Counted from the first letter of the stretch, positions 10,987 to 40,719 are shown. The stretch is 64,000 bases of DNA from Pseudomonadota bacterium (GCA_039818345.1 JBCBUC010000009.1:46549-110548), one strand, 5' to 3'. The notes: generated by a model from the letters alone, not told the origin. Numbers and translations are program-made.

Positions 10987-10996
10987 TGTGATCACA
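10987..10996. promoter_or_regulatory. Palindromic operator candidate TGTGATCACA upstream of the ALDH-GS-GATase-oxidase operon
   Basis: Seen as aaaTGTGATCACAaat. One of 7 intergenic copies of YGTGATCACR. Confidence 0.6.
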
Positions 10997-11091
10997 AATA
11001 ACAGCACGTGGATTCGCGTTTGGAAGGTCGGAAGCACCCGTTCCACAAGGCTCAATAGCGACGATTTAGCGCCGGAGAAGAGATCATCAAT

Positions 11092-11101
11092 CGTGATCAC
11101 A
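11092..11101. promoter_or_regulatory. Operator candidate CGTGATCACA between gntR and the ALDH gene
   Basis: Seen as caatCGTGATCACAag. Confidence 0.55.
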
Positions 11102-11126
11102 AGCGCCCAACCGCGATGCGGTGGAG

Positions 11127-11864
11127 CTAGCCTTCAGCGGTAAAATCCGAGGCTGCGATGTTGTCCATCCCATGCAAAATGTCTTGCCGCACCGCCTCTC
11201 GCAGCGCGTCGGGATCATGCTCTTCGATCGCTTGAACGATTTCTTTGTGGTGATCGTCGGTGAGACACGATGTGCCCAGACGGCCAATCACGACCCGCAT
11301 GAACGGCCCGACCCGCATCCAAAGGCTTTCCACCAGATCAAGCAACACCGTTGCTTCGGACGCCCGGTAGAGAGCGAAATGAAATTCGCTGTTATATTGA
11401 GAGTATTGGTTTGCATCACCTCGGCGGATTGCAGCGTCGAGCGAGGCGTCAATCTTCTCGAGCTCTCGCAGCAGCTTCTTCCGATCCCGCGGCTGTCCAT
11501 CGAGCCTGATCAAGGCGCGCTCGGCAAGCGTTGGCTCAAGCCAAAGCCGCGCCGCCTTGATCTCGTCGAGTTTGTCTTCGGTCATGCGCGCGATCGAGAC
11601 GCGCCTTGTTCCTGTGAATTCCAGAGCTCCCCGAGCGGCGAGGCGGCGTATGGCCTCCCTCGCCGGCATCGCGCTGACATCAAACTCAGCCGCGATGCCC
11701 CGCACCGACAACACGCGGCCGGGGCTGAGCCGTCCTGAAATCAGGGCTTCGCGCAGCCGCTCATACACCTGCTCATGCATCGCGACGTTGCCGTCCGACG
11801 CAGGTTCGTTGTCTCCACCCTCCTTAGAGGGCTTGCGATCGTAGATTTTCTCCAGAGCAGCCAT
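11127..11864 (-). CDS. GntR family (FadR/FCD) transcriptional regulator
   Basis: wHTH (VYERLREALISGRLSPG...VSAMPAREA) plus FCD domain (NSEFHFALY, HHKEIVQAI). Confidence 0.92.
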   Translation of the reverse strand: MAALEKIYDRKPSKEGGDNEPASDGNVAMHEQVYERLREALISGRLSPGRVLSVRGIAAEFDVSAMPAREAIRRLAARGALEFTGTRRVSIARMTEDKLDEIKAARLWLEPTLAERALIRLDGQPRDRKKLLRELEKIDASLDAAIRRGDANQYSQYNSEFHFALYRASEATVLLDLVESLWMRVGPFMRVVIGRLGTSCLTDDHHKEIVQAIEEHDPDALREAVRQDILHGMDNIAASDFTAEG

Positions 11865-12005
11865 TATTTTTTCCAAGGATGTGATTGGCTTAGCTGTAAT
11901 GCCCGTGCTTACACTGTGGGTATCTGGGGTGCCATCACAAATTCGACAACGGTGACCAAGTCATGCATGCTCCTCTTTGCAAAGCGGGCCATAAGCAAGT
12001 AGGGT

Positions 12006-12046
12006 TGTGATCACGTTTTTGACATTGCTTCATCCCAAGCAATATC
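12006..12046 (+). promoter_or_regulatory. Operator TGTGATCACG (12006-12015) next to a sigma70-type promoter: TTGACA (12019-12024), -10-like GCAATATC (12039-12046)
   Basis: Read directly from sequence upstream of the GS-spuC operon. Promoter assignment is by consensus match only. Confidence 0.55.
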
Positions 12047-12124
12047 GAGCCGTTAATCTAAGGTGTTCGGCACGCCGGTTCCTAATTGGTCCCGCCGAAT
12101 GCAAACCGGGCGCAAGTCATTAAG

Positions 12125-13474
12125 ATGAACACGGAAGAACTCAATAGCTGGCTGACGGCCAACCGGATCGGAGAGGTGTCCTGCCTTGTGCCCGACCTTA
12201 ACGGTTCGGCGCGCGGGAAATCGATGACGCCGACGCTGTTCTTGGACGCGCACAAGAACCAAAGCCTCCGCATTCCCGAAGCAACGTATGCGATCAATGC
12301 GCATGGTGAGTTCACCACCAACGATTTTATTGACGAGTCGGAAAAGGACCTCTCCATGATCGGGGACCTTTCGACGCTTCATTTGATACCCTGGGCGAAA
12401 GAAAACACCGCCTGCGTGATCTGCGACGGGTGTTCTGTGGATGGAAGTCCATCACCGATTGCACCGCGGCAAGTCCTTAAAAGCATTGTGTCTCGTTATC
12501 ACGAGTTGGGCCTCGAGCCGATCATCGGCCCAGAGGTGGAGTTCTATTTGATCGCCAAGTTCGAGGAAACGATCGCCGAACCTCATCCGCCTAAAGGCGC
12601 CTCTGGATTGGCCGAATTTGGTCAATATGCATACAGTCTTGATGCGATCGATGAATTCGATGACTTTTTCGAAGAACTCTACGATTTCGCCGAAGTTCAA
12701 AATATTGAAATCGATACCATTATTCACGAAGAGGGCCCGTGCCAGTTTGAGATAAATCTCAAACACAGCACGGCCCTCAAAGTCGCCGACCAATTATTTC
12801 TGTTCAAACGATTGGCCCGGCATGCCGCAAAGCGCCATGGATTTTTCGTCACGTTCATGGCCAAACCGTACGCTGAAGAAATGGGTAGCTCTATCCACCT
12901 TCACCAAAGCCTGGTCGACCTTAAAACTGGTAAGAATGTCTTCGCCAATGAAGACGGCAGCGATAGTGAGCTCTTCTCCCACTACATTGGTGGCCTGCAG
13001 CGGTTTACGCCATCGGTGATGCCGCTCATTGCTCCGTACACGAATTCTTATAACCGGTTCGAGGCGTATATGAGTGCGCCAACCAATGTTCATTGGAGCC
13101 GAGACAACAGGACCGTCGGCCTTCGCGTACCTGAAAGCTCGGCTTCCGCTCGCCGTATCGAGAACCGGATCCCTGGCTCAGACGTTAATCCCTACCTCGC
13201 CATCGCCGCTTCGCTTGTCTGCGGATTAATCGGCATCGACGAGAAGATCGAACGAAAGAGCGAATTTATTGGCCAGAGCGCTGAGGATAACCGGCGGACA
13301 CTTCCTAAAACCCTCACAGAGGCAGTCAGCAAATTTCGCGGCTGCGAGGAATTGAGGAAATATCTTGGCGACGCGTTGGTATCGACCTTCGCTGACGTCA
13401 AACAAGACGAATACGAACATAGATCGAGCGTCCTTAGCCCATGGGATGTTCGATATCTGATGGTTAACGCTTAA
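12125..13474 (+). CDS. Glutamine synthetase-like gamma-glutamyl-amine ligase, copy 2
   Basis: DLNGSARGK, GPEVEFY, HEEGPCQFEIN, FMAKPY, GSSIHLH, WSRDNRT, ENRIPGSDVNPY. Confidence 0.9.
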   Translation: MNTEELNSWLTANRIGEVSCLVPDLNGSARGKSMTPTLFLDAHKNQSLRIPEATYAINAHGEFTTNDFIDESEKDLSMIGDLSTLHLIPWAKENTACVICDGCSVDGSPSPIAPRQVLKSIVSRYHELGLEPIIGPEVEFYLIAKFEETIAEPHPPKGASGLAEFGQYAYSLDAIDEFDDFFEELYDFAEVQNIEIDTIIHEEGPCQFEINLKHSTALKVADQLFLFKRLARHAAKRHGFFVTFMAKPYAEEMGSSIHLHQSLVDLKTGKNVFANEDGSDSELFSHYIGGLQRFTPSVMPLIAPYTNSYNRFEAYMSAPTNVHWSRDNRTVGLRVPESSASARRIENRIPGSDVNPYLAIAASLVCGLIGIDEKIERKSEFIGQSAEDNRRTLPKTLTEAVSKFRGCEELRKYLGDALVSTFADVKQDEYEHRSSVLSPWDVRYLMVNA

Positions 13475-13489
13475 GTGTAAGGAACGAAC

Positions 13490-14905
13490 ATGTCGGAGCA
13501 ACTGTCGCCCGGTGGCCCAAGTGTCGCTGACCTTGGAGCCAACAACACGCGCTATATCCAAGATCTTGATAACGCGCACCACCTTCATCCGTTTACGGTT
13601 CACCATGAATTGCGCGACAGCAATCCGCGTGTCATCTCGCACGGTAAGGGCGTTTACCTGTGGGACTCAGACGGCAACAAGATTGTCGATGGCATGGCTG
13701 GTCTCTGGTGTGTTCAAGTCGGATACGGGGTGGAAGAGCTTGCAGAAACAGCCGCCGATGCCATCCGTTCTTTAAGCTATTACAACACCTTCTTCCAAAC
13801 CACGACGCCGCATGCGGCGGAACTGAGCGCACTTGTTGCGAAGAAGACACCAGCTGACCTCAACCAAATTTTCTTTGCCTCATCTGGTTCGGAAGCCAAC
13901 GATTCGGCGATCAAGTTCATCTGGTATTATTGGAACATCAAAGGGCAACCGAAGAAGAAGCATATTATTGCCCGCGACCGCGCCTATCACGGAACAACGG
14001 TGGCGGCCGCTAGCCTCACCGGCCTGCCGTTTATGCATGATATCTTTGATCTGCCACTTCCGCAGATGCATCACGTTGGTCCGACACCGCACTATTTTGC
14101 TTATGGCGAAGCTGGAGAGAGCGAAGACGAGTTCGCCCAACGATGCGCACAGGCCGTCGAAGACAAAATTCTCGAGCTGGGGCCAGAAAACGTGGCCGCC
14201 TTTATCGGCGAGCCAGTGATGGGCGCTGGCGGCTTGATGCTTCCTCCAAAGGGCTATTGGCCGATGGTCGAGGCGATCTGTCGGAAGTATGATGTTCTTC
14301 TTTGGGCTGATGAAGTGATCTGCGGCTTTGGACGGACGGGATCATGGTTCGGCAGCCAGACCTATGGCTTTACACCCGACCTCATCACGATGGCAAAGGG
14401 CATGTCGAGCGGGTATGTGCCAATGTCGGCGGTTGCACTTAACGACGAGATTGCCAACACCTTGGTGGACGCCGATACCGAGATGGCGCACGGCTTCACC
14501 TACTCCGGACACCCCGTTTCAAGTGCTGTATCGATGAGGAACATCGAACTCATCGAGGAATGGGGACTGGTGACCAAAACGGGCGGTGAGACGGGCGATC
14601 ATTTCCAGAAACGCCTATCAGAACTCAATGATCACCCTCTGATTGGTCAAACCCGCGGCATTGGCATGCTGGGTGCGATGGAACTCGTCCGAGATAAAAC
14701 GACAAATGAGCGGTTTGATGACGACGCATCCGCAGGGACCGTTTGCCGGAACAATTGCTTCAAAACTGGCGTGGTGATGCGGGCTGTGGGTGACACCATG
14801 TTCCTCTCGCCGCCGCTGGTGATGAGCCGTGATGAGATTGACGAGATGTTCGGTTTGATCCGGACCAGTCTTGATTTAACGCTGGATGAGCTAAGGACCT
14901 CTTAA
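13490..14905 (+). CDS. spuC: Class III aminotransferase, putrescine:pyruvate aminotransferase (SpuC)-like
   Basis: HHLHPFT, DGMAGLWC, SSGSEAND, AYHGTT, EPVMGAGG, DEVICGFGRTG, MAKG (PLP Lys), HGFTYSGHP. Confidence 0.85.
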   Translation: MSEQLSPGGPSVADLGANNTRYIQDLDNAHHLHPFTVHHELRDSNPRVISHGKGVYLWDSDGNKIVDGMAGLWCVQVGYGVEELAETAADAIRSLSYYNTFFQTTTPHAAELSALVAKKTPADLNQIFFASSGSEANDSAIKFIWYYWNIKGQPKKKHIIARDRAYHGTTVAAASLTGLPFMHDIFDLPLPQMHHVGPTPHYFAYGEAGESEDEFAQRCAQAVEDKILELGPENVAAFIGEPVMGAGGLMLPPKGYWPMVEAICRKYDVLLWADEVICGFGRTGSWFGSQTYGFTPDLITMAKGMSSGYVPMSAVALNDEIANTLVDADTEMAHGFTYSGHPVSSAVSMRNIELIEEWGLVTKTGGETGDHFQKRLSELNDHPLIGQTRGIGMLGAMELVRDKTTNERFDDDASAGTVCRNNCFKTGVVMRAVGDTMFLSPPLVMSRDEIDEMFGLIRTSLDLTLDELRTS

Positions 14906-14974
14906 GCGCGTTTCGCCTTTCAGGTGCGTCGTACTGGACACTTTTATTTATCTATTCGTGTAGGGTTCTTTTCT

Positions 14975-15427
14975 ATGGGGCAAATCGTTCGAGGTCAGCT
15001 TGCGCATCTCGATGAGATCGCCCCTCTTTTTGACGCTTACCGGCAATTTTATGAACAGCCTGCTGATCTAGAGGGAGCGAAAGCCTATCTAAAACAACGG
15101 CTAGCGGATGATGATGCGATTGTCTTTTTAGCCAAGGGGAGCAACGGTAACGTCATCGGCTTCACCCTCCTCTACCCCACGTTTTGTTCGGTCGAAATGC
15201 GCCACGTCTTTGTTCTCTATGACCTCTTCGTCGCCCCGACGGCACGACGACGAGGCGTCGGGGAAAAGCTGCTGAGCACCGCTCAAGAGCACGCAAGAGA
15301 CGCAGGCGCTGCGTGGTTAAAGCTTGAAACCGCGTATACAAATAATAGTGCTCAATCGCTCTACGAAAAACTAGGTTGGGAGCGCGACAACGAGTTTCAC
15401 ACCTATATCTTCTCACTGACCGACTGA
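14975..15427 (+). CDS. GNAT N-acetyltransferase (SSAT-like)
   Basis: LYDLFVAPTARRRGVG acetyl-CoA motif A, N..AQSLYEKLGW. Confidence 0.88.
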   Translation: MGQIVRGQLAHLDEIAPLFDAYRQFYEQPADLEGAKAYLKQRLADDDAIVFLAKGSNGNVIGFTLLYPTFCSVEMRHVFVLYDLFVAPTARRRGVGEKLLSTAQEHARDAGAAWLKLETAYTNNSAQSLYEKLGWERDNEFHTYIFSLTD

Positions 15428-15453
15428 CACGACATCTTTGTAGGAATGGTTTT

Positions 15454-17082
15454 ATGAACGTGGGTTCAAGTAAAGAGTATGATGTTGTGGTGATCGGTGC
15501 AGGCCATAACGGCCTGACCAACGCTGCATTTCTCGCAAAATCAGGACTCGACGTTCTGGTCGTAGAAAAGAATGACCATATCGGCGGCGCGACTGTCAGC
15601 CGAGAACTCTATAGCGGCTGGAAATACTCCAACTGCTCGTACGTGTGCAGCCTTTTTCGCCCCGAGATCTATCAAGCACTCGATCTTGGCCACCATGGCT
15701 TAGAAGTTGTTCCTCTCCAGGGCGGGATTACCTTTAAGCAGGATGGTGACTTTTACGGAAACTATCATCACCACGAGGTGCGCCGCCGCGAGATCGCTCG
15801 TCATTCTCAACGCGATGCCGATGCCGTTATCCGTTTTGATGCAGATCTTATGAAATGGTGTCGCCTGATCCGCGGCTTGTTGATGCGAACGCCGCCTGAT
15901 CCCGGGACGTTCAAACCACGCGATTTCATGGAACTCGCCTTCCTTCTCAAAAAATTCTATGAACTCTCAGAGTCTCAGCTATATGAATTCATACGATTTT
16001 TTACAATGTCGATTGCGGAATACCTAGAAGAGTATTTCGAAAGTGACGTGGTGCTGGCTCATTACTCTGGGGGCAGTATTATTGGAACGGGCCTCGGTGT
16101 TTATTCACCGGGTACGGCCTATGTTCTGCTACACCATGCCATGGGTGACGTCGACGGTAGCGTCGGTTCATGGGGGTTTGCCAAAGGTGGAATGGGATCA
16201 GTGTCCGGAGCTATCGCTTCCGCCTATCAATCCTTTGGTGGTGAGATCCGGACAAGCGCAGAAGTCACATCGATCGATGTGCAATCGGGCGAAGCGCAAG
16301 GTGTTGTGCTTCAATCGGGTGAGGTTATCCGTGCCCGGCAAGTGGTTTCGAACCTCGATGTCAAGCGCACCTATCTTGGCATTATGGATGAAAAGCATCT
16401 GCCTGATGAGGTGATTAAGCGCGCGAAAAACTATAAAATTCGCGGCTCATCGGGGAAACTGAACATCGCGCTCGACGGGATGCCAGAGTTCCCCGCCCTG
16501 CCGAAAGGCTCGCCGCTCACTCTTGGGCATATGCACTTCAGCGATACGCTCGAGCGTCTCGAGCGGGCCTATGATGACTGGAAAGACCAGCGTTGGTCTT
16601 CTGATCCTTACACGGATACTTTGATACCGACGCAATTTGATCCATCAATGGCACCGCCGGGCAAGCATATGATGACAGTCTTTGTGCAGTACTGCCCCGC
16701 CGATATTGAAGGTGGCTGGACCGACGAAAAACGTGATACTTTCGGCCAAACAGTGATTGATCAAATATCCGAATATAGCCCGAACTTTAAAGACCTTATT
16801 CTTCATGCGGAAATTAGAACGCCGCGAGAACTCGAAGCAGAAGTTGGCTTGACAGAGGGCAATATCTTTCAGGGTGAATTAACCTTGGACCAACTCCTCT
16901 TCAATCGCCCCTTCCCCGGCTACGCGCAATATCGTGGGCCGGTACGGAATATGTATATGTGCGGATCAACCACACACCCAGGCGGCGGCGTGATGGGCGC
17001 CCCGGGTGTCAACGCGGCGCGCGAAATTCTCAAGGACCTCAAACGCACCGATACCACCCCGGAGGATTTTGGCGATGACTAA
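15454..17082 (+). CDS. COG1233 (CrtI/PYROXD2-like) FAD oxidoreductase, 'alpha' type, cassette 1
   Basis: IGAGHNG, CSYVCS, EGNIFQGE, CGSTTHPGGGVMGAPG. Confidence 0.88.
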   Translation: MNVGSSKEYDVVVIGAGHNGLTNAAFLAKSGLDVLVVEKNDHIGGATVSRELYSGWKYSNCSYVCSLFRPEIYQALDLGHHGLEVVPLQGGITFKQDGDFYGNYHHHEVRRREIARHSQRDADAVIRFDADLMKWCRLIRGLLMRTPPDPGTFKPRDFMELAFLLKKFYELSESQLYEFIRFFTMSIAEYLEEYFESDVVLAHYSGGSIIGTGLGVYSPGTAYVLLHHAMGDVDGSVGSWGFAKGGMGSVSGAIASAYQSFGGEIRTSAEVTSIDVQSGEAQGVVLQSGEVIRARQVVSNLDVKRTYLGIMDEKHLPDEVIKRAKNYKIRGSSGKLNIALDGMPEFPALPKGSPLTLGHMHFSDTLERLERAYDDWKDQRWSSDPYTDTLIPTQFDPSMAPPGKHMMTVFVQYCPADIEGGWTDEKRDTFGQTVIDQISEYSPNFKDLILHAEIRTPRELEAEVGLTEGNIFQGELTLDQLLFNRPFPGYAQYRGPVRNMYMCGSTTHPGGGVMGAPGVNAAREILKDLKRTDTTPEDFGDD

Positions 17083-18628
17083 TCCGTCCTCTGTCTGTAT
17101 CATTGGCGGCGGCCATAACGGATTGATCTGCGCGATCATGCTTGCGAAAGCCGGTTTGCGCGTCACTGTTCTGGAAGCTAGAGCAAGCCTCGGCGGCGCC
17201 ATCGCGCCCCGCGCTTTCGCTCCAGGTTTCCAGGCGCCCGGGCTGGCCCATCACTTTGGTTCTCTCCACCCTAAGATCTTGAAAGACTTGGGCCTACCGC
17301 CAACGGGCGGGACGCCAGTCGACACCATCGCGCTCGATAACACTGGCGATCACCTGACACTTGGCGCAACGCAAGCGTCCGGTAATGGTCTAACGAGTCA
17401 AGACAAAGAGGCGTATACAGCCTTTAAAACTGACTACGCCAAGTTCGCCCAAGCCTTAGAGCCGCTGCTCCTCAACAAACCGCCTCGGCTTAAAGATATG
17501 GGCAGGGACGATCAATGGACGCTCGCGAAACTCGGGTGGTCGCTGCGATTTGGGCTGGGTGTGCCGTCCATGCGCGAGTTCCTTCGCGTCGGCGGTGCCA
17601 ATATATATGACGTACTCAATGAAATATTCGAGAGTGAACAACTCAAAGGCGCGATTGCCGTTGATGCGGTGATGGGGCACCACCTCGCTCCACGCACGCC
17701 GACGAGCGTTCTTCCGTTCTTGCTGCGGCTCTTCGGTGAGAGTCATAGCGAAAGAAGTATCATGACGGGCGAAGGTAGCAACCTTTCAGCGCAACTCGAA
17801 AAACTAGCATTATCGTCAGGCATCGAACTGAGAACAGAAACGAAGGTGGAAACAATCGTCGTCACCGATGGGCGCGCAGCCGGTGTCGTCATTGAGGGAG
17901 GAGAGAGGGTTGATGCCGATCTTGTGGTCTCGAACATCGATGCAAAGTCGACCTTCCTGAGACTGACGGGTCCTGCCAATTTGGACGCAATGTTCACCCA
18001 CCGCATCAGCAAAACACGGACAAATGGCAATGTTGCGAAGCTTCACCTTGGTCTGTCGACGTTACCGACATTCCAGGGTCTTTCTTCCGACCAGTTAAGA
18101 CATAGAATGCTGATCGCTCCTGACATGCGGTTCATCGAGCGCGCCTTCAACCACGCAAAATATGGTGAGTATTCCGAAGATCCCGTTTTGGAGATCACTT
18201 TACCCAGCCTTGGTGATCCGTCCCTTGCACCTCAGGGGAAACACGTGATGTCGATATCGGCGAGCTTTGCCCCCTACCACCTGAAAGAAGGCTGGGAACA
18301 AGGCCGGACAATATTCCGTAAAATCATCATATCAGCCATTGAAAAGTTCGCGCCAGGACTGGAAGCATCAGTAGAAGCAGAGGACTTTCTAAGTCCCGCT
18401 GATATTGAACAAGACTATGGAATTTCCGGCGGGCACTGGCATCACGGTGAAATGACCATCGATCAAGCGTTCATGATGCGCCCCATCCACGGAACCGCGC
18501 AATACAACACGCCGATCGATAATCTCTACTTATGCGGAGCTTCTGCTCACCCAGGAGGCGGCGTCACCGGAATACCAGGATGGAACGCGGCAAAGAGAAT
18601 CCTCTCTCTTCACCAGGAGCGTGGCTGA
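17075..18628 (+). CDS. COG1233 FAD oxidoreductase, 'beta' type, cassette 1
   Basis: IGGGHNG, GGHWHHGE, CGASAHPGGGVTG. Overlaps the alpha gene by 8 bp. Confidence 0.88.
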   Translation: MTNPSSVCIIGGGHNGLICAIMLAKAGLRVTVLEARASLGGAIAPRAFAPGFQAPGLAHHFGSLHPKILKDLGLPPTGGTPVDTIALDNTGDHLTLGATQASGNGLTSQDKEAYTAFKTDYAKFAQALEPLLLNKPPRLKDMGRDDQWTLAKLGWSLRFGLGVPSMREFLRVGGANIYDVLNEIFESEQLKGAIAVDAVMGHHLAPRTPTSVLPFLLRLFGESHSERSIMTGEGSNLSAQLEKLALSSGIELRTETKVETIVVTDGRAAGVVIEGGERVDADLVVSNIDAKSTFLRLTGPANLDAMFTHRISKTRTNGNVAKLHLGLSTLPTFQGLSSDQLRHRMLIAPDMRFIERAFNHAKYGEYSEDPVLEITLPSLGDPSLAPQGKHVMSISASFAPYHLKEGWEQGRTIFRKIIISAIEKFAPGLEASVEAEDFLSPADIEQDYGISGGHWHHGEMTIDQAFMMRPIHGTAQYNTPIDNLYLCGASAHPGGGVTGIPGWNAAKRILSLHQERG

Positions 18629-19824
18629 TGACCCTTCATAACTTCAACAAAGTGCTTGAGCCATCGCCCTTTGACGCCCAACTGCGTGCGCAAATGCAGA
18701 CAGAGAACTGGGCCGGTTGGAATGGATACCTCACACCGCGCATCGCTGATACACTGGCCTCGGAGTATTTCGCCGTTCGAAGCGCATGCTCCGTGCTCGA
18801 TCTCACGCCGATGGAGAAATACCGGATTACAGGACCGGATGCCGGCGCGTTTCTCAACCGATTGGTCACGCGCGATATCGCCAAATTAAAGGTGGGGCGT
18901 GTTGGCTATGCCATCTGGTGCAATGACGAAGGGAAAGTCATTGACGACGGAACAATTTTCCATCTTGGCGACAATGATTATCGTCTGTGTGCACAACACC
19001 ACCAACTAGACTGGCTTTTGATATCAAGCATCGGATTTGATGTCGCAATCGCCAAAGAAACCCACGATATCGCAGCCCTATCTGTCCAGGGCCCCACCTC
19101 TTATTCTGTCCTATCGCAAGCGGGGATCGCAGGATTGGATGATCTCAAACCGTTTGGGATTCGCCACACAACATTGAATGGGTTTGATATCACCGTCTCA
19201 CGAACAGGGTTCACGGGTGATCTTGGATACGAATTGTGGACTGATCCTGAGAATGCGACCAAAATGTGGGACGCGATCTTCGCGGTCAAGGATCGCGGTC
19301 TTTATGACGTACGACTCATCGGTCTCGATGCGCTAGAAATGGTCCGTGTTGAGGCTGGATTTTTGATGCCCGGCTGGGATTTCAATACCGCAGAAACAAC
19401 TGTCCGTGCGGATCATGATCGATCGCCGTTTGAGTTGGGCCTTGACTGGACTGTCACCTTTGACAAACCAAATTTCACCGGCAAACGGGCATTGATGGCC
19501 GAGCGTCAGCGCCCTGCGAAGCGAAAGCTGTTGAAACTGGTGCTCGAAGGAAACAAGCCGCCCGTTGGTTCCTTTATCTTTAAGGGTAAAAAGGGCAGCC
19601 AAACTGGCGCGGTTATGGCGCAGATTTGGTCGCCTGTCCTGAAACGTTGCTTGGCAATTGCGGATATTGATTTTAAATCAGGACAACAACCGCAAAACCT
19701 CTGGGCCGAGATTTACTACCAGAAAGAACTGAAGTGGCATGTGAAATGGGCCAAATGCGATGTCGTCAACGGCCCTTTTTGGAGCAATCCCCGCCGAACG
19801 GCCACGCCGCCAGGTCGTTTCTAA
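18628..19824 (+). CDS. GcvT-like (folate-binding) aminomethyltransferase family protein, cassette 1
   Basis: EYFAVR..DLTPM, GKVIDDGT, SRTGFTGDLGYEL, RVEAG. TGATG coupling to the beta gene. Confidence 0.88.
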   Translation: MTLHNFNKVLEPSPFDAQLRAQMQTENWAGWNGYLTPRIADTLASEYFAVRSACSVLDLTPMEKYRITGPDAGAFLNRLVTRDIAKLKVGRVGYAIWCNDEGKVIDDGTIFHLGDNDYRLCAQHHQLDWLLISSIGFDVAIAKETHDIAALSVQGPTSYSVLSQAGIAGLDDLKPFGIRHTTLNGFDITVSRTGFTGDLGYELWTDPENATKMWDAIFAVKDRGLYDVRLIGLDALEMVRVEAGFLMPGWDFNTAETTVRADHDRSPFELGLDWTVTFDKPNFTGKRALMAERQRPAKRKLLKLVLEGNKPPVGSFIFKGKKGSQTGAVMAQIWSPVLKRCLAIADIDFKSGQQPQNLWAEIYYQKELKWHVKWAKCDVVNGPFWSNPRRTATPPGRF

Positions 19825-19848
19825 ACGATTGATCAGGGTGAAGACTGA

Positions 19849-20643
19849 ATGCCGACAGTTGAAATCTATAGTCGCGACACTGACCCTGAAAAGATATCGC
19901 AAAGCCTTTTGAAGGATGGCGGCGTCATCGTGCGCCAGCAGGTCAACGACGATATGGCTGACGCTGTTCGGCAGGAACTGCGTCCGTCCTTTGAACGAGA
20001 AGGTCGGGACTACGAAAACGACTTCAACGGCTATAAAACGCTACGTCTCAGCGGTGTTCTCGCGCTTTCGCGAAAGTCTGCCGACCTTATCGCCCACCCT
20101 TTTGTGACGGCTGTTGCCGATAACATTCTGAAAAAAAACTGCGAAAACTATCGGATCGGAAGCAGCACGGCGATCGAAATTCTTCCCGGTGAAGAGGATC
20201 AGGTGCTTCATCGCGACGATGATATCTATCCTATACGGATGCCTGGGGTCGAGTTTCAAATTGCGGCGATGTGGGCGCTCGATGACTTCACTGCGGAGAA
20301 CGGTGGGACACGCATTGTCCCAGGAAGCCAAGACCTGCGAAGCACCGATGTGGTAAAGGAAGATGATATCGTTCAAGCCGTCATGCCAAAGGGCTCAGTT
20401 CTCTTTTATCTCGGATCAACCGTTCATGGTGGAGGCGCGAACAAGGCGACGTCCGCTCGCGCTGGTCTTGTGACGACCTATAGTCTGGGTTGGCTACGAC
20501 AAGAAGATAATCAGTATCTCTCCGTTCCTCGGGAGATAGCAGACAGCTACCCAGAACACGTCCGCCGACTGATGGGCTACCAGTCGCATGGTCCACTGGG
20601 TGTGTTCCCTGGCGATCCCGATGACCACTGGCATAAAGCCTAA
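19849..20643 (+). CDS. PhyH-like Fe(II)/2-oxoglutarate dioxygenase
   Basis: LHRDD (HxD), WALDDFTAENGGT, VHGGGAN (distal His), R of ARAG, LGWLRQE. Confidence 0.88.
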   Translation: MPTVEIYSRDTDPEKISQSLLKDGGVIVRQQVNDDMADAVRQELRPSFEREGRDYENDFNGYKTLRLSGVLALSRKSADLIAHPFVTAVADNILKKNCENYRIGSSTAIEILPGEEDQVLHRDDDIYPIRMPGVEFQIAAMWALDDFTAENGGTRIVPGSQDLRSTDVVKEDDIVQAVMPKGSVLFYLGSTVHGGGANKATSARAGLVTTYSLGWLRQEDNQYLSVPREIADSYPEHVRRLMGYQSHGPLGVFPGDPDDHWHKA

Positions 20644-25687: not shown

Positions 25688-25700
25688 CGGAGGCGGAGCG

Positions 25701-30427: not shown

Positions 30428-30575
30428 ACCCGCCCGATCTTTGCCGCGTGGGCGGGTTGACCTATCTAAAGGTATACCAGCGTTTTGGTGTTTGCATTCA
30501 AGCCAATCAACCCAGAACGCACTTGGATCGGATGCCCACAGCCCCTGCCCCCTGCCCGACGTGGGCACCCGATCC
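30428..30575. other. Two GC-rich inverted repeats upstream of GS copy 3, the second enclosing a C-tract loop
   Basis: 8-bp stem 30428-35/30450-57. 15-bp stem with one mismatch, 30525-39/30561-75. Confidence 0.5.
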
Positions 30576-30656
30576 AGGACATTGCGGTCTCTCTTAACAA
30601 CGCAAGCGAGACAGCCAACGATAGCCTGGTGACTTTTTATGACCGCGACGACGGGA

Positions 30657-31988: not shown

Positions 31989-32032
31989 GCGAGCCACCAA
32001 CCACTTCGACGCAAGCAAAATGAGTATTGACG

Positions 32033-33409: not shown

Positions 33410-33913
33410 TTAGCCTTCTTCGTAATAGGCAACGGTGTCGATAACGATCAGCTCACGGTATTCTTCGGTCATATCCCACGTTCCAACAAATCCCTTTGGA
33501 ACCATGAACATGTCACCTTCGCTATAGGTCACCGAATGGCCAGCATCGTCGGTCAGCACAAGTTCGCCTTTGAGAACAACGACGAACTCGTCATAAGGAA
33601 AGGGTTCGTCAATCGCCAATCGCGCAGGGCCAGCATTCCAGACAGAGACGACGTTCTCTCCCTCAAAAATGATGGTCTCGCTGTTTTTCCCGGTACCGCT
33701 TTCGAGGTAAGAGCCTTCCATATCTGGTAAGGCGTCGAGTTCCATCGCGTTCAAACTGTCCATCGTCCATACATCTGGAGGCGGAAAGCCAGAGAGCGTT
33801 GCCGCCTGTGCTGCGGGAACGCCATGAGAAACCAAAGACAGTCCGCCGGCAGCAATTGCTCCGGCTGCGAAAGACATTGAAACCAACGCGAGGTTCGATA
33901 ATCGAAGGGGCAT
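33410..33913 (-). CDS. DUF861/EutQ-like cupin with N-terminal signal peptide
   Basis: Hydrophobic N-terminus ending AQA. Cupin core VWNAGP..DEFVVVLKG..VPKGFVGTW. Confidence 0.8.
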   Translation of the reverse strand: MPLRLSNLALVSMSFAAGAIAAGGLSLVSHGVPAAQAATLSGFPPPDVWTMDSLNAMELDALPDMEGSYLESGTGKNSETIIFEGENVVSVWNAGPARLAIDEPFPYDEFVVVLKGELVLTDDAGHSVTYSEGDMFMVPKGFVGTWDMTEEYRELIVIDTVAYYEEG

Positions 33914-33937: not shown

Positions 33938-33947
33938 CGTGATCACG
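33938..33947. promoter_or_regulatory. Operator candidate CGTGATCACG upstream of the exported cupin
   Basis: About 25 bp upstream of ATG 33913. Confidence 0.55.
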
Positions 33948-34112: not shown

Positions 34113-36575
34113 TTAGAACGCCTTATAAAGGCTCAACCGAATTTCGCGTGGACGAACCGTGAAGACTCGATCGTCTGCGAAACGTGGCCAGATGTAGGTG
34201 ATCGCGCGCTCATCCCAAACGTTGTTGACCGCCAACGAGATCTCCCAATCGTCAGACCTGACACCAAAACTCAGGTCACCGATCTGATAGTCAGGTTGGG
34301 TCGCCGGAATTGCTGAACCAGAGCCGAAGAGCGCAAGGGAGGCAGCCGTACCGTTCACGGACTCTCCGGTGTAAGCGTAATCGAACCGGGTGAAGCCCTC
34401 GAGACCATTCCAAGGCAGGTCCTTGGTGTAAAGAAGACCGGCCGACAGTTTCCAGTTCGGTGTTGCCGGAAGCTCATCGCCTTCGCCGCCAACGACCAGC
34501 GCGCCGCCGCCGATGACGATGTCATCATCAAGCGTCGCATCGATATAGGTTGCAGCCAATGATAGCTCGAGCTCGCTGGTTGGTTTGAAGGCAAACTGCC
34601 CCTCGATACCATCAATCGACGCGTTACCAGCGTTCACAATCGCTGCACCTGCCGCGGGTGCCGGGAAGATCGCTTGGATCTGGAAATCGTTCCAGTTCAT
34701 CATAAACGCGGTGATGTTGGCGATGGCGCGACCGTCAAACCACTGCGATTTAAAGCCAATCTCATAGTTCTTCAGCTTATCAGAACTAAACTCGTTCGGC
34801 CGGATGGCCTGCGCCGCCTGGGTTTGCGCACCACCATTGGCACCGCCGATCCGTACGCCTTCCGAGTACGTAAAGTACGCAAGGAAATCATCCGTGGGCT
34901 CCCAGGTGATGTTCGCTCGACCCGCAAAGTCTTGCGTGGTCTCTGACCCGTCATCGTTGCCGCCCGGCGCCGTGCCCACAAACGTGTCGTTCTCACGAAC
35001 CCTGAAGTCCGTGGTGAACCAACGGCCACCACCTGAAATGTTGATGGTATCGGTAACGTCGATGCCAACCTCGCCGAAGAAGGCGACCGATTCGAGGTCA
35101 CCGCGGTAACCCCAATACTCGTTACCCGGACGACCGTTGTAGGTGAACCCTTCGCGGAAGCCTTGGTCGAACCACACGTCAGTGGGCTCAACGCCATAAT
35201 AGGCGAAGATCTCGCCGTTCGGTCCACCAAACTCAGCGAAGTCATCAACCCGGCTGATATAGTCCCAATCGTTGTTGGTGTTCTCATAGAACGCACCAAC
35301 GAGCCAGCTGAACCGGCTGTCGCTGTCTTCACTCGATGTGAGACGAACTTCTTGCACGAAAGAATTCACGCGCTGATCAAGCTCAATCACGCCGGTCGGG
35401 TTGGGGCCAAAGTCGTTATAATTGACAAAGCAGATGTAGAGATACGCACAGGTCGCATATTCGGGGAACTCAGCGACGCCCGTGTAATACTCTGCAATCG
35501 CCAGACCATTATCACGATAGTTGGTCATGTAAGCGGTGGAGTCGATATCGTAATCGATCGTCCGATTGTGCCAGCCGCCAGCGATTGTCAGGTCAGCAAA
35601 ACCGAGGTCACCCTGTACGGTGATCGACGTGTTGTACCATTCATCATCACGACGCTCGTCTTTGAACTTGATCGTGTTCAGATCACCGAAATCAGGATTG
35701 AAGTCGAACAGATTGTCGAGGCTTGAGTTTTGGTAGATGACCCCAACGTCGATCGTCCAGTCATCATTTGGCTGATAACGGACCGTCGCGCGGCCGCCCT
35801 CGCCGCTGTAATCGTTGATGTCGTCTTCGACCTGATCGGCGTTATCGCGCGTGCCATTGTTCGGTGAATAAGCTGACGTCGTACCGAGGACGTTATCAAT
35901 GTAACCACCCTCATACTCGTAAAAGCCAACGAGTCGGATGGCGAGCTTGTTCTCAATGATCGGGATATTGACCGCACCACTGATGTCGTAGCTCTCTTCG
36001 CCGTCCTTGGTCGTCGCTGCGCCAACATTCACCCAGCCCGAAAAACCGCTGGTGTCAGGCTTTGCGGTCACAATTTTCAAGGTACCGGACTGTGAGCCAG
36101 CGCCATAAATCGTGGGTTGCGGACCGGAAAGCGCCTCGATGCGTTCGATATCGATCAAACGCACATCAGGGTTCTGGCCATCGCGCGTGATGGGGATTTC
36201 GTCGAGATAGAGGATCGACGAACTGATCGTGTCAAAACCAGTCGGTTGGGCCAGTGCACCACGGAAGGCAATCGTCGTCGCGCCTGGAGATGATGTACCG
36301 AACGAAACGCTCGTCAGTTCCTTGGCGTAGTCTTGGAAGTCCCGAAGGCCCTTCTCGCGAATATCATCGCCGTCAAACGCCTGAACCGCGAGTGGGACAT
36401 CTTGGAGGCTCTGCGCTCTCTTACGAGCGGAGACGATCATCACATCGAGCGCTGTGCCGTCGTCATCCTCAGCAGCCACGGCCTGCGCCACAGCGCCCGT
36501 CGGCACCACCACGATCGACGACATCGCAAGCAGGGAAACACCCAATGCCCATGCGGATTTCGAACGAGTTTCCAT
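34113..36575 (-). CDS. TonB-dependent outer-membrane receptor
   Basis: Signal peptide (AVA-QA), TonB-box-like DVMIVSARKR, plug motif DIERIEALSGPQPTIYGAGSQSG, C-terminal Phe (LYKAF). GGAGG SD before ATG 36575. Confidence 0.95.
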   Translation of the reverse strand: METRSKSAWALGVSLLAMSSIVVVPTGAVAQAVAAEDDDGTALDVMIVSARKRAQSLQDVPLAVQAFDGDDIREKGLRDFQDYAKELTSVSFGTSSPGATTIAFRGALAQPTGFDTISSSILYLDEIPITRDGQNPDVRLIDIERIEALSGPQPTIYGAGSQSGTLKIVTAKPDTSGFSGWVNVGAATTKDGEESYDISGAVNIPIIENKLAIRLVGFYEYEGGYIDNVLGTTSAYSPNNGTRDNADQVEDDINDYSGEGGRATVRYQPNDDWTIDVGVIYQNSSLDNLFDFNPDFGDLNTIKFKDERRDDEWYNTSITVQGDLGFADLTIAGGWHNRTIDYDIDSTAYMTNYRDNGLAIAEYYTGVAEFPEYATCAYLYICFVNYNDFGPNPTGVIELDQRVNSFVQEVRLTSSEDSDSRFSWLVGAFYENTNNDWDYISRVDDFAEFGGPNGEIFAYYGVEPTDVWFDQGFREGFTYNGRPGNEYWGYRGDLESVAFFGEVGIDVTDTINISGGGRWFTTDFRVRENDTFVGTAPGGNDDGSETTQDFAGRANITWEPTDDFLAYFTYSEGVRIGGANGGAQTQAAQAIRPNEFSSDKLKNYEIGFKSQWFDGRAIANITAFMMNWNDFQIQAIFPAPAAGAAIVNAGNASIDGIEGQFAFKPTSELELSLAATYIDATLDDDIVIGGGALVVGGEGDELPATPNWKLSAGLLYTKDLPWNGLEGFTRFDYAYTGESVNGTAASLALFGSGSAIPATQPDYQIGDLSFGVRSDDWEISLAVNNVWDERAITYIWPRFADDRVFTVRPREIRLSLYKAF

Positions 36576-36647
36576 CACTGCCTCCATGCGAGTCGTTACG
36601 ACCCGGTCACGCCCCTAATCGGCTTTTGTGAACCACAAAGAGTTAAA

Positions 36648-36657
36648 CGTGATCACA
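36648..36657. promoter_or_regulatory. Operator candidate CGTGATCACA in the divergent TBDR / hydroxylase intergenic region
   Basis: Seen as aaaCGTGATCACAatt. A spacer variant TTGTG-AAC-CACAA lies at 36626-36638. Confidence 0.6.
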
Positions 36658-36862
36658 ATTCAGTGGTGTTGGATAGAGTGTTCACGGGCATGTGTACCCA
36701 ATCGATGACCAAATGTGGCAATTTCACAACAACGATAATCCAGGATCGGCCAAAGAAAACGGCTTGAGGGCCGCTTCTGGTCAGTCATGGCTTGGCGATT
36801 GACATGATCGGTCAAGGCGGCACAGACTCCTCAGAGGCAGTTGAAAACGTAGCGGATTTGGC

Positions 36863-37426
36863 ATGGATATCGGCGTTCCGATCAAGGACCTAGGAGCGGT
36901 CAACTCGGAGGCTTTGCGGGAAACGATCTTGTCCTTTGAAGACTCCGTCTGGCGCGAAGAACAGCTTCGTCAAAAAAAATTCGACGAGGTCCATCAAGAC
37001 ACTGAATCGGTGATCATGATCTTTTGTGACCATGACAACTGGCCGAATATCGACCTTATCAAGGGGTCAGGTTGGGACCGGATGGCCGATCATGCACTGC
37101 CGCTGATGCATAGCATTATCGAAGAGCACTACGCCAAGGGCGGGACGATCATTCGAGCGATGGCCGCGAAACTCAAAGCAGGCAGCACCATCACCACCCA
37201 TACCGACCAGCACACGTCGTTTCATCAGGGTCATCGCATCCACGTACCGATCACCACAAACAACAAAGTCCGCTTCATGATCGATGGACGCCCCTACAAA
37301 ATGCACCCGGGGAGCGCCTATGAGATCAACAACCAAAAGCGCCACGGCGTGATTAACAGGGGTGAGGAAGACCGGATCACCTTCATTTTCGACTACGTTC
37401 CGGGCTCCAACGCCGTTACCGCTTAG
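36863..37426 (+). CDS. Aspartyl/asparaginyl beta-hydroxylase-like Fe(II)/2OG oxygenase
   Basis: HTD (HxD), RIHVPITT, EINNQKRHGVIN (distal His), DRITFIFD. Confidence 0.85.
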   Translation: MDIGVPIKDLGAVNSEALRETILSFEDSVWREEQLRQKKFDEVHQDTESVIMIFCDHDNWPNIDLIKGSGWDRMADHALPLMHSIIEEHYAKGGTIIRAMAAKLKAGSTITTHTDQHTSFHQGHRIHVPITTNNKVRFMIDGRPYKMHPGSAYEINNQKRHGVINRGEEDRITFIFDYVPGSNAVTA

Positions 37427-37436
37427 GTTTCTCGCC

Positions 37437-38366
37437 ATGACAGCATTGATCGCAACATCCGTCGTGCGCGGATCCGACCAAGGTGAAAGCCACGGCGGCG
37501 TTTATCTTGTTAATCTCGATAGTGACGACGTCTTGCAGCCCGTTGACTGGGACACCATAGACATTGATTGGCAGGGCCGGGGCTGGGACAGGGGCCTGCG
37601 CGGCATCGCCTTTCATGACGAGCACATCTATATTGCCGCGAGTGACGAGCTTTTCGTTTTCAACCAAGCGTTCGAGATCGTCGCTTCATACAGGAACCAA
37701 TACCTCAAACACTGCCATGAGGTAAGTATTCACGGCCAGCACTTGTTCGTTGTCTCAACGGGTTTTGATTCCGTTTTGGGGTTTAATCTTCATACCAAGA
37801 CCTTTGATTGGGGATTGCACATCAAGTCAGATGGTCTGATTTTCCGTGCAGGACGGTACGATCCAAATGGCGACAAAGGCCCCCTCCTCCTCAACAAACT
37901 GCATCTCAATAATGTCCACTGCGATGAAGGCGGTATGTATATCAGCGGTATACGAACGGGTGCTCTACTGAGATTTAACGGAAAAGCCGTGGGTGTGATG
38001 ACGACCCTACCTGAGGGCATTCATAACGCACGTCCTTTTCGTGACGGTGTGCTGCTCAACGACACACAATCCGATGCCGTCCGATTCGAGGGCCCAGCTG
38101 GCCGCGCTGCGTTCCGTACGCCGCGCTTTGCGCCGCATAAACTGACCCACACCAAGCTTGATGACTCGCGGATCGCGCGGCAAGGATTTGGTCGCGGGCT
38201 TTGCGTCATCAGTGACAACGAAATCGCCGCGGGCTCTTCGCCCTCGACGATTTCGATCTATGATTTGACGACGCAAAAGGCCAAAAAGGCGATCAACTTG
38301 TCACTCGATGTGCGTAATGCCATCCATGGCCTTGCGGTTTGGCCGTTTGCCTGGCCTGATCATTAG
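37437..38366 (+). CDS. Hypothetical beta-propeller protein (TIGR03032/DUF4915-like)
   Basis: Repeated blades GLRGIAF, HCHEVS, LHLNNVH, GIHNARP, GFGRGLC, AIHGLAV. Confidence 0.7.
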   Translation: MTALIATSVVRGSDQGESHGGVYLVNLDSDDVLQPVDWDTIDIDWQGRGWDRGLRGIAFHDEHIYIAASDELFVFNQAFEIVASYRNQYLKHCHEVSIHGQHLFVVSTGFDSVLGFNLHTKTFDWGLHIKSDGLIFRAGRYDPNGDKGPLLLNKLHLNNVHCDEGGMYISGIRTGALLRFNGKAVGVMTTLPEGIHNARPFRDGVLLNDTQSDAVRFEGPAGRAAFRTPRFAPHKLTHTKLDDSRIARQGFGRGLCVISDNEIAAGSSPSTISIYDLTTQKAKKAINLSLDVRNAIHGLAVWPFAWPDH

Positions 38367-40396
38367 ACTGACTGAAGCGATTTGGGCCGCTGCTCATTCG
38401 GCAGGTCGAGCAAAACTGGCTCCAAAAAATCAATCAGTTCTTCAAGCTGCTCTTCGTAATGGCGCCACAGATTGACCGAGCCCTTATAGATCGGTTGACG
38501 CACCTGCTCCGAACTCGCCGTTTTCACCGCCCTTTTGGTTTCGTGATAGCGGAGCATCGAGTCTTCAAAGACCAGACCGCAGTGCTCAGCAATCCGCATG
38601 ACGTTGGCTTCGAGGTTTTCCACCACGTCCTCATACTGAACGGTGAGCACCTTACCCGGCAAAACATCATTCCAATGATCGATCATCCGCACATACTGGG
38701 CGTAGTAGTGCGCGAGATCGTAAAAATCATAGGAAAACACTTGCCCCCTCGCAAAGAGCTGCTTGAACGTCCCCAAACAGCTATCGAGCGGGTGCCTGCG
38801 GGCATCGATCACCTTTGCGTTGGGTAGGATCGTGTGCAAAAATCCGATGCCGGTGAAGTTGTTTGGAAGCTTATCGGTAAAATAGGTCGCACCCGTCCGA
38901 TGCGGCAGCGTGTTCTCTATATATTCTTTGCCAAGATCTTCAATCTGATAGGGCGTGAGCTCATGCATACACTCTGGGTATTTGATGCCGTCGACCCTGT
39001 TAAACCCCGTCTCGGTGGCCAACCTTAGAAGGTAATGAAGTTCCGCAGTCCCCTCCACCTCCGAATGACTGGCGAGGATCTGTTCGAGCAAGGTCGAACC
39101 AGATCGCGGCAAGCCCACAATGAGGATCGGCGAGGCGTCGGAACATCCTTGCCCCGCATGTTTTTCGAAAAAATCCTTGGAGAAAACATCGATGATCCGA
39201 TCGTTCATTTTCTCAAATTCGATCGGATCGTACTGAACCTTCAGGCGTTTTTTCTCGTTGCCACGAGCGTAGTAATCAAACGCCTGAACGTAGTCTTTGC
39301 GGTCCTCATAGGCTTTCCCGAGCGCAAAAGAGAATGAAATCGCCGAGTCTTCGCCAGCGGGTATTTTCGCAACTTCCGCCAGCTGACTTTTCATGTCCTC
39401 CACTTCGTCATCATCAAATCGGAAGGTTTTGAGGTTGGCGAGGCTCCAATAAACTTCACCGAAATCAGGCTTCGAGTCGGCACACCGCTTGTAGGCATCG
39501 ATTGCTTCGTCCTGGCGACCAATCGTCTTCAGCGCATGCCCAAGACAGAGGAGCGAGGGGAAATGCTTTTCGTCAATGGCCAAGGCTTGGTCGAGCCAAT
39601 TGACTGCATCATCAAGCTGTCCCGCATTCATGCTGTTGGCGCCGAGTTTCTCGAGGACGTGTACGGATTTCGGCCTGACCTTCAATGCACGCTTGAAGGC
39701 AGCCTCCGCCTTATCGAATTTTTGTTGATCGTTGAGCGCCGAACCAAGATTAATCCATGCCGCCCAGTAATCAGGCGCCACCTCAACAGCTCGGCGGAAA
39801 AACGCCTCGCCATCGTTGAAGTTTTCCTTCCTGACACAGAGGACACCCATCAGGCGTAGCGCATCGACGTTCTCAGGGTCCCGGCGAAGAATGCCGCGAT
39901 AGATAGCCTCGGCCTTCGCGGTATCGCCTTTGCGGTTGAGCTCCATCGCCTCAACGAGGGCCTGCCGATCAGGATTGTTGTCGAGATATTGCTGGAAGAT
40001 TTCGTCCGCCTCGATGCCGCGCCCCGCAACCGCGAGCAACTCGCCCAAACGTTGGTTCGCGCTGGTCAATGAGGGGTCTCGCTTGACCGCCGCTTGCAGT
40101 GACTTCACCGCCTCATCGGTCTTGCCTTGGCGGATTTGGGCATCGGCCAAATTTTCATAAACAGGTGCAAAATCGGGCATCAATCTCGTCACATGGACGA
40201 AGGCCCGTTCAGCTTCCTCCAACCGGCCAAGTCGAGTGAGTGACACCCCCAACATCCGCAGTAAGTTCGGATCGTTAGGGTGCTCCTTCAACGAACCGCG
40301 CAAAAAAGCTTCCGCCTTATCGGCGGCGTTGGCTTGGATCATCCGCACCGCCATCTCGAAGTCTCGCCGGGCTGTTTCGTTGCGTTGAAGCGACAT
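38363..40396 (-). CDS. TPR-repeat protein with C-terminal PAPS-dependent sulfotransferase domain
   Basis: About 9-10 TPR-like helical pairs, 5'-PSB loop GLPRSGSTL, FTDKLPNN, 3'-PB RHPLDSC, TASSEQVR. Confidence 0.92.
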   Translation of the reverse strand: MSLQRNETARRDFEMAVRMIQANAADKAEAFLRGSLKEHPNDPNLLRMLGVSLTRLGRLEEAERAFVHVTRLMPDFAPVYENLADAQIRQGKTDEAVKSLQAAVKRDPSLTSANQRLGELLAVAGRGIEADEIFQQYLDNNPDRQALVEAMELNRKGDTAKAEAIYRGILRRDPENVDALRLMGVLCVRKENFNDGEAFFRRAVEVAPDYWAAWINLGSALNDQQKFDKAEAAFKRALKVRPKSVHVLEKLGANSMNAGQLDDAVNWLDQALAIDEKHFPSLLCLGHALKTIGRQDEAIDAYKRCADSKPDFGEVYWSLANLKTFRFDDDEVEDMKSQLAEVAKIPAGEDSAISFSFALGKAYEDRKDYVQAFDYYARGNEKKRLKVQYDPIEFEKMNDRIIDVFSKDFFEKHAGQGCSDASPILIVGLPRSGSTLLEQILASHSEVEGTAELHYLLRLATETGFNRVDGIKYPECMHELTPYQIEDLGKEYIENTLPHRTGATYFTDKLPNNFTGIGFLHTILPNAKVIDARRHPLDSCLGTFKQLFARGQVFSYDFYDLAHYYAQYVRMIDHWNDVLPGKVLTVQYEDVVENLEANVMRIAEHCGLVFEDSMLRYHETKRAVKTASSEQVRQPIYKGSVNLWRHYEEQLEELIDFLEPVLLDLPNEQRPKSLQSV

Positions 40397-40517
40397 GGTT
40401 TTGTGTGCACACTTTCGGGCTAAAAGCTGAAAAGATCGCCGAGTTTATGGCGCATCGGCTGTGTTGCAAGGATCATAGCAGATAACACTTATCTCAGTGT
40501 GCACTGCACAGCCCATT

Positions 40518-40719
40518 CGTGATCACACCGTAACCTTGACTGCTCCCTAGTAAGATGCGGCGAAGCTCTATGCATGTCATCAGAACGTTGAATTCGCTCA
40601 TTTCCGATGTATTGAGAAGCGCTCGATCACGCCCTCAATTGCTCGTTTCGTGAATTGGCAGAATGCGATCACGATTGCCGAAAAAGTGGCGTATTCTCTT
40701 GCAATTGTGATCACGATTG
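40518..40719. promoter_or_regulatory. Cluster of operator candidates: CGTGATCACA (40518), TGCGATCACG (40664, one mismatch), CAATTGTGATCACGATTG (40702-40719)
   Basis: In the divergent sulfotransferase / membrane-protein intergenic region. The last site is an 18-bp near-perfect palindrome. Confidence 0.65.

Follow-up and report, generated by a model that had tools for sequence, protein, structure and literature searches.

A palindrome recurring between amine-catabolism and uptake genes as the predicted operator of AkgR-related GntR/FCD regulators

The palindrome is enriched between genes in two islands

We analysed a 64,000-nucleotide stretch of DNA from a Pseudomonadota bacterium (hereafter the window; C9:46549-110548 of a 3.36-Mb, 99%-complete assembly, G000, with 56.9% G+C), in which the palindrome YGTGATCACR recurs beside a GntR/FCD regulator gene and at genes for gamma-glutamyl-amine catabolism, TonB-dependent uptake and a TPR-sulfotransferase. 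An earlier sequence-only reading had listed seven exact copies outside genes, at 10987, 11092, 12006, 33938, 36648, 40518 and 40706. All seven were found, and all are intergenic by a crude gene call from open reading frames (ORFs) and codon usage; a one-mismatch copy that had been reported at 40664 is likewise present between genes. The predicted operators are given below as O1 to O8, with scores from a position weight matrix (PWM).

10987..10996: O1, TGTGATCACA, top PWM score; 55-76 bp upstream of the aldehyde dehydrogenase (ALDH)-GS-like-GATase-DAO operon (minus strand).
11092..11101: O2, 26 bp past the GntR stop codon, 105 bp from O1.
12006..12015: O3, in the divergent GntR / GS-like_b promoter region, 71 bp upstream of operon 12086..20643.
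33938..33947: O4, ~25 bp upstream of the exported Cupin_3 gene and 166 bp past the stop codon of the TonB-dependent receptor (TBDR) gene; 16.9 bits, the lowest PWM score among the exact sites.
36648..36657: O5, between the TBDR (minus) and AspH-like hydroxylase (plus) genes, 61 bp upstream of the TBDR; 23.9 bits.
40518..40527: O6, 122 bp upstream of the TPR-sulfotransferase gene.
40664..40673: O7 (weak), TGCGATCACG, one mismatch, 42 bp from O8; 15.1 bits.
40706..40715: O8, centre of the 18-bp near-palindrome CAATTGTGATCACGATTG (40702-40719), which had been described as the best, A/T-flanked copy; 24.6 bits; 103 bp upstream of the membrane protein-symporter-SpdH operon.

The regulator gene and the predicted target genes are as follows.

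5948..10932, minus strand: predicted target operon 1, ALDH, GS-like protein (gamma-glutamyl-amine ligase type), class-I GATase (PuuD-like) and DAO oxidase by Pfam and NCBIfam; O1 and O2 upstream.
11127..11876, minus strand: GntR/FCD regulator, the putative operator binder; start TTG 11876 or ATG 11864.
12086..20643, plus strand: predicted target operon 2, GS-like_b, class-III aminotransferase, GNAT, two amine-oxidase-like proteins, GcvT-domain protein and PhyH by Pfam; O3 upstream.
33410-33913, minus strand: exported Cupin_3; O4 ~25 bp upstream.
34113..36587, minus strand: TBDR, with Pfam Plug and barrel domains; O5 61 bp upstream.
36863..38366, plus strand: AspH-like hydroxylase and a 334-aa protein of unknown function; O5 206 bp from the ATG.
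38363..40396, minus strand: TPR-sulfotransferase by Pfam; O6 122 bp upstream.
40818..45448, plus strand: membrane protein of unknown function, sodium:solute symporter (SSS) and SpdH-like flavoprotein by Pfam; O8 103 bp upstream.

The seven exact copies compare with 0.27 expected in the window, close to the earlier estimate of about 0.25, and none of 100 shuffles reached seven. Without its flanks, the core GTGATCAC is present in nine copies; the additional two (51357 and 55700) fall within genes and are missing one Y/R flank or both, much as had been noted. Across G000 there are 37 copies of YGTGATCACR, a total near that predicted by a Markov model, with 21 scattered within coding DNA and 16 in the intergenic 11.4% of the genome (P ~ 1e-6). 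Thirteen of the 16 intergenic copies are confined to two islands, one in the window and one on contig C27, in stretches that make up 1.4% of G000; the motif is thus not equally common in intergenic DNA genome-wide. Of the 14 top-scoring hits in a PWM scan, 13 are intergenic; 11 of these 13 fall in the same two islands, the other two being C8:73616 and C11:29880. The extended consensus in G000 is aAT-YGTGATCACR-ATt. The C8:73616 copy lies 31 bp before the gene C8:72611-73585, which encodes a 324-aa protein without a Pfam match, and the C11:29880 copy precedes a third TBDR gene by 27 bp, in a region where that gene and an HU-like gene diverge.

GATC and TGATCA are both part of the core, and a palindrome of this kind could be a restriction or modification target, a site of GATC methylation or the remnant of a repeat element. 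We regard such a non-regulatory origin as barely credible, because the flanks of the copies are unrelated past ~3 bp, GATC and TGATCA occur in G000 at observed-to-expected (O/E) ratios of 1.02 and 0.90, a search of the 99%-complete assembly found no Dam-type GATC methylase (PF02086, D12-class), and the 10-mers are over-represented only in these intergenic regions, not across the genome. As a separate observation, GAATC is strongly depleted in G000 (O/E 0.52) with GATC at expectation, which fits a CcrM-type (GANTC) background and not a Dam-type one. A literature search found only unrelated papers for TGTGATCACA and no account of this polyamine/GntR/TonB regulon.

Sites are conserved across species and co-occur with a GntR clade

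Because an orthologue of the window GntR was found in just 1 of 22 genus mates (G010, 88% identity) and in few other members of the order, the window island appears to be accessory. The A/T-flanked motif numbers 10 in G000 and 4 in G010, and in the other 39 of the 40 relatives compared it occurs 0-2 times (mean 0.28). In G010 the genes are laid out identically and the sites occupy corresponding positions, including that at the membrane protein-symporter-SpdH operon, and pairwise G000/G010 alignments of four intergenic regions revealed the sites either as conserved islands or within conserved promoter-like blocks. O1 lies inside a block that extends to a promoter-like pair, TTGAAA...GATAAATC, at 10972-10944. 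The TTGACA that had been noticed 3 bp after the 12006 copy is present at 12019-12024, and from O3 through this box to GCAATATC (12039-12046) the sequence forms one conserved block. The O5 block TAAACGTGATCACAATTC is also conserved. O2 and O6 stand as conserved islands amid diverged flanks, with the 105-bp O1-O2 and 188-bp O6-O8 spacings kept, and O7 retains its GCGATCAC core, mismatch included. The C8 site is conserved too. A G010 copy at C73:1814 was set aside as a chance occurrence, since it falls within coding-like sequence and has no conserved counterpart in G000.

The distances between sites (105, 42, 146 and 188 bp in the window and 263 bp between C27:13443 and C27:13706) are all close to whole helical turns, and the 105- and 188-bp spacings are identical in G010 although the DNA between the sites has diverged. 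Such near-integral spacings may reflect cooperative binding or looping.

Beyond the genus, we examined 23 loci picked by protein homology from other species (Erythrobacter, Parvularculaceae, Phenylobacterium and other Caulobacteraceae, Sphingomonadales and others). In 10 of the 23, the exact 10-mer is no more than a few hundred bp away from the GntR homologue (P ~ 2e-17), and four more have one-mismatch versions there. Further sites precede TBDR genes in six of these loci (L015-L017, L020, L022, L024); sites also fall downstream of the TPR-sulfotransferase gene, just before the TBDR, membrane-protein and aminotransferase genes. In three distant genomes (L015-L017), genes of the TPR-sulfotransferase, TBDR and membrane protein-SSS-SpdH types are co-located with the GntR homologue and its sites, and GS-like, aminotransferase and DAO genes divergent from GntR homologues, with sites, were likewise seen in other genomes. 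Among seven more homologues from a 400-genome sample of the class, the exact motif was present at three, and five had it or a near-motif beside the gene. The motif also adjoins homologous GntR genes in Rhodobacteraceae.

Where homologues lack the exact motif, symmetric variants (TGAGATCTCA, TGCGATCGCA, TGTGATCGCA and TTTGATCAAA) replace it at the same positions, from which the predicted operator across the clade is TGnGATCnCA. No motif was found near homologues below ~37% identity (24-37%; Chloroflexi, family f4). In one lineage (L050, G258:C104), the divergent GntR/GS-like region carries at ~5083-5106 a longer palindrome, AGTGATCGG-AA-CCGATCACT, instead of the motif, which suggests a different half-site arrangement there.

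The GntR is the sole regulator common to the site-bearing distant loci. The window island itself encodes two other regulators.

25701-26246: PuuR-like HTH_3-cupin regulator (NCBIfam PuuR, 1.5e-41, below cut-off); no palindrome nearby.
28619-29107: Lrp/AsnC regulator, adjoining alanine dehydrogenase.

Given that these genes sit inside the island and that the half-sites resemble those of CRP, the binder could be the PuuR-like protein, Lrp or a CRP-like factor acting on TGTGA/TCACA. We consider this very unlikely. No palindrome or PWM site was found anywhere in 12016-33937, the home of the PuuR-like and Lrp genes; the related site-carrying loci contain no PuuR-like gene; a CRP-type site, TGTGA-N6-TCACA, needs a 6-bp spacer, whereas the half-sites here abut (N0); and presence of the motif tracks the GntR clade. 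PuuR of E. coli is an HTH_3-cupin repressor of the Puu gamma-glutamylation pathway with a non-palindromic operator. The window encodes a pathway of this kind (gamma-glutamyl-amine ligase, oxidase, aldehyde dehydrogenase and hydrolase), but PuuR and the GntR come from unrelated families, and their operators are likewise unrelated.

The GntR/FCD regulator, its paralogue and AkgR

The window GntR combines a GntR winged helix-turn-helix domain (PF00392, E = 9.1e-17, residues 35-88) with a C-terminal FCD domain (PF07729, E = 3.9e-21). Its closest solved structure is McbR (4P9F, 2e-17), and no NCBIfam equivalog was found for it. G000 encodes a second such protein.

C27:32116-32865: paralogous GntR/FCD, 56% identical to the window GntR; GntR domain 1.1e-16.

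The two proteins have a common recognition helix, VSAMPAREA(I/M)RRL, and no further homologue was found in G000. The stretch C27:13443-31160 contains six exact copies of the palindrome, indistinguishable in core and flanks from the window sites. The sequence-only reading, which had named the palindrome as the operator of the local GntR and did not extend to C27, gains comparative support from conservation and clade co-occurrence. It loses its exclusive assignment to the window copy, because the C27 paralogue shares the helix and has six further sites. The identity of the proteins, their shared helix residues and the uniform sites would also permit the C27 paralogue, or heterodimers, to be the main binder of the window sites, with the window GntR in a different or redundant role. 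This seems improbable: G010 has a window-type orthologue and keeps all tested window-type sites, a second homologue was not found in its 85%-complete assembly, and three sites flank the window GntR gene. That G010 keeps window-type sites with only the window-type regulator, in an 85%-complete assembly, argues that the window GntR suffices for the window sites.

The surroundings of the paralogue (C27:9476-34820; L001, L002) form a second accessory amine-catabolism island. Besides the paralogous GntR/FCD gene, it encodes an aldehyde dehydrogenase, a class-III aminotransferase, an acetylpolyamine-amidohydrolase-like (HDAC-like) deacetylase, a TBDR, a Cupin_3 protein, a DAO oxidase, an SpdH-like protein, a molybdopterin oxidoreductase, a P450 and an AMP-binding enzyme.

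The nearest precedent is AkgR (RSP_0981), a member of the GntR family that activates sucCDAB and sdh in Rhodobacter (Cereibacter) sphaeroides (Imam et al. 2015, PMC4323418). Its ChIP-seq/MEME motif is GTGATCAC, its published sites have the same Y/R flanks and its functional sites are pairs of the form GTGATCAC-N13-GTGATCAC (PMC4323418). As a proxy for RSP_0981 we used the L054-type GntR of Rhodobacteraceae, picked by co-occurrence and linkage. Orthologues of this type are present in 70 of 81 sampled Rhodobacteraceae genomes, and paired N13-type sites, which sit before sucC, are present in 65 of the 81: 64 of the 70 with an L054-type orthologue versus 1 of the 11 without. In at least 11 genomes the L054-type gene shares a contig with the pairs, at a distance of 10-16 kb, and in G447 it adjoins the lpd-suc cluster. 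Because it co-occurs with and is linked to the paired sites, we treat the L054 type as the putative AkgR orthologue group. A different FCD GntR near the suc cluster of G296 (L061:1424-2080) was rejected for this role: it is 29% identical to the window GntR, has a canonical VSRTP helix, shows a weaker association with paired sites (62/72 vs 3/9) and is unlinked to them in other genomes.

The window GntR is ~40% identical to the L054 type, and the helices are similar (VSMTPAREAVRRL in the putative AkgR orthologue group vs VSAMPAREAIRRL in the window GntR). In a tree, the two groups fall in one proteobacterial clade as separate, well-supported subclades, and because of this separation we class the window GntR as an AkgR-related paralogue with the same predicted DNA core and different targets. 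AkgR and the window GntR belong to one family and would share the 8-bp core GTGATCAC, but differ in site architecture and targets, AkgR having N13-paired sites at sucCDAB and sdh, and G000 single palindromes 42-263 bp apart at amine-catabolism and uptake genes. A search of G000 for AkgR-type intergenic pairs (N8-N19, <=1 mismatch per half) found none, and no tricarboxylic acid cycle promoter was found among the high-scoring G000 sites, which all lie in the two islands, C8 or C11.

The published comparative search reported candidate AkgR sites at puuC and class-III aminotransferase genes in some alphaproteobacteria (PMC4323418, Fig. S5 legend). At two Rhodobacteraceae loci (L052 and L056), we observed a paralogous GntR gene directly before a class-III aminotransferase gene with a GTGATCAC-type site, and the candidate AkgR sites at puuC and aminotransferase genes may belong to the paralogue rather than to AkgR.

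Together, these comparisons make it very probable that YGTGATCACR is the operator of an AkgR-related clade of GntR/FCD regulators, of which the window GntR is the neighbouring member. Physical binding by a GntR dimer we infer from the homology to AkgR and from co-occurrence.

The sequence-only reading had invoked FadR-type GntR proteins as its precedent, which fits the GntR and FCD domains and the palindrome; the spacing is atypical, and AkgR is closer. The likeness to FadR/VanR-type FCD regulators such as PdhR, LldR, DgoR and McbR (Suvorova et al. 2015, PMC4494728) lies in the combination of winged helix-turn-helix and FCD domains, an A/T-flanked palindrome, a gene divergent from or next to its targets, probable autoregulation and double sites in divergent regions. 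GT and AC are usually 3 or 2 nt apart in operators of the FadR subfamily, and a 4-nt distance is typical of HutC (PMC4494728). In the window operator they are 4 nt apart, and, compared with the FadR-type TKGT-N(2-3)-ACMA, the site here is likewise palindromic and A/T-flanked, but the letters conserved across the clade are TG-GATC-CA, not GT/AC. The recognition helix differs as well, with A/Q-M in place of the R-T of most members.

Direction of control and predicted regulon

We propose that YGTGATCACR is the core of a ~16-bp operator bound by dimers of AkgR-related GntR/FCD factors, and that the two paralogues (window 11127-11876 and C27:32116-32865) would read sites that tie two accessory islands into one effector-responsive regulon. 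This regulon would comprise gamma-glutamyl-amine catabolism (GS-like ligases, oxidases, aminotransferases and aldehyde dehydrogenases), TBDRs, the cupin, the TPR-sulfotransferase and the membrane protein-symporter-SpdH operon. The regulator's own gene would also be under the operator, as would at least one gene that lies outside both islands (C8:72611-73585). In the proposed mechanism, the apo-regulator would repress from sites that lie on the -35 region or adjoin it, and the presumed effector, an amine or an intermediate of the pathway, would bind in the FCD domain and release the regulator from the operator. We lean towards such effector-relieved repression, if only slightly. FCD regulators of catabolic operons are mostly repressors (PMC4494728).

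Several observations weigh against this proposal. Two candidate promoters of alphaproteobacterial type are conserved in both G000 and G010, that of GS-like_b (TTGACA-N14-GCAATATC) and that of the ALDH operon (TTGAAA-N15-GATAAATC); their operators are centred at about -44 and -55, upstream of the -35 box and not over the -10/+1 region. The characterised relative, AkgR, is an activator (PMC4323418), and the putative AkgR orthology used here rests on co-occurrence and linkage. O2 lies behind the GntR gene without an obvious promoter, and a strong site at C27:20023 overlaps an MFS stop codon between convergent gene ends, also with no obvious promoter. The two paralogues, finally, are not distinguishable by site sequence.

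The same regulator-operator pair could instead work by activation or in a dual manner, as in AkgR, with the effector-loaded protein binding just upstream of the -35 box and recruiting RNA polymerase; we hold this to be a real but lesser possibility. AkgR activates sucCDAB and sdh from GTGATCAC sites (PMC4323418), the operators in the two conserved promoters are about one helical turn apart in their upstream positions, and at ~10 of 40 sites a TTGAC-type box follows the operator by 0-14 bp. However, this gap follows no fixed phase, for which we rejected a strict activator geometry; O4 lies ~25 bp from the start codon; and several regions have two or three sites 42-263 bp apart, an arrangement typical of cooperative repression, which is also the usual mode of catabolic FCD regulators. 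A promoter scan of three intergenic regions found no match to the E. coli consensus; the candidate promoters are based instead on TTGAC boxes and on -10-like octamers of alphaproteobacterial type that G000 and G010 share.

The proposed local GntR/FCD regulon, related to AkgR, is well supported but of a known, ordinary type; what is noteworthy is the predicted membership of TBDR and sulfotransferase genes, the presence of two paralogues on one operator and the atypical operator geometry. In marine and freshwater Alphaproteobacteria, PuuR control of the E. coli type fails to explain the genes of gamma-glutamyl-amine catabolism, and the GntR with its operator would offer a candidate regulatory pair for them. 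If TBDRs and a TPR-sulfotransferase are thereby linked to amine metabolism, the search for their substrates would be narrowed, and TGnGATCnCA with its symmetric covariation provides a compact case for GntR paralogues sharing or partitioning one motif. More tentatively, the shared operator could mark one route for a complex polyamine-like substrate, running through TonB uptake, a periplasmic cupin, hydroxylase and sulfotransferase steps and gamma-glutamylation, under joint control of two paralogues that integrate two signals or heterodimerise; more broadly, transcription factors of the AkgR clade would keep one core and be insulated only by site architecture, single sites vs N13 pairs. If this doubtful scenario were true, a TBDR for polyamine-type cations would represent a new substrate class.

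Predicted membership is well supported for operon 5948-10932, which resembles a complete Puu-type gamma-glutamylation route, for the GntR gene and the GS-like_b operon, and for the TBDR gene, the TPR-sulfotransferase gene and the membrane protein-symporter-SpdH operon. The link to the gamma-glutamylation genes drawn by the sequence-only reading thus stands for the operons with O1-O3; it does not extend to 20653-33349, which has no sites and has its own PuuR-like and Lrp regulators. Because no palindrome lies between 12016 and 33937, the genes in 20653-33349 are probably outside the regulon, and part of the polyamine core is probably controlled separately. Inclusion of the exported cupin is plausible: O4 overlaps the GTG of the longest cupin ORF, but because an ATG at 33913 precedes the signal peptide, the gene likely starts there, placing O4 upstream rather than across the start.

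The regulon as first drawn included the TBDR, the TPR-sulfotransferase and the membrane protein-SSS-SpdH operon, for all of which conserved sites were found, and also the hydroxylase/propeller operon (36863..38366), for which the case is weak because its conserved TTGACA (~36799) is ~140 bp from O5, the nearest site. The ~60 bp directly upstream of the AspH-like hydroxylase gene (36799-36862), which begin with this TTGACA, are ~95% identical between G000 and G010, far above the surrounding intergenic DNA, and this stretch may be a separate promoter or leader element independent of the palindrome.

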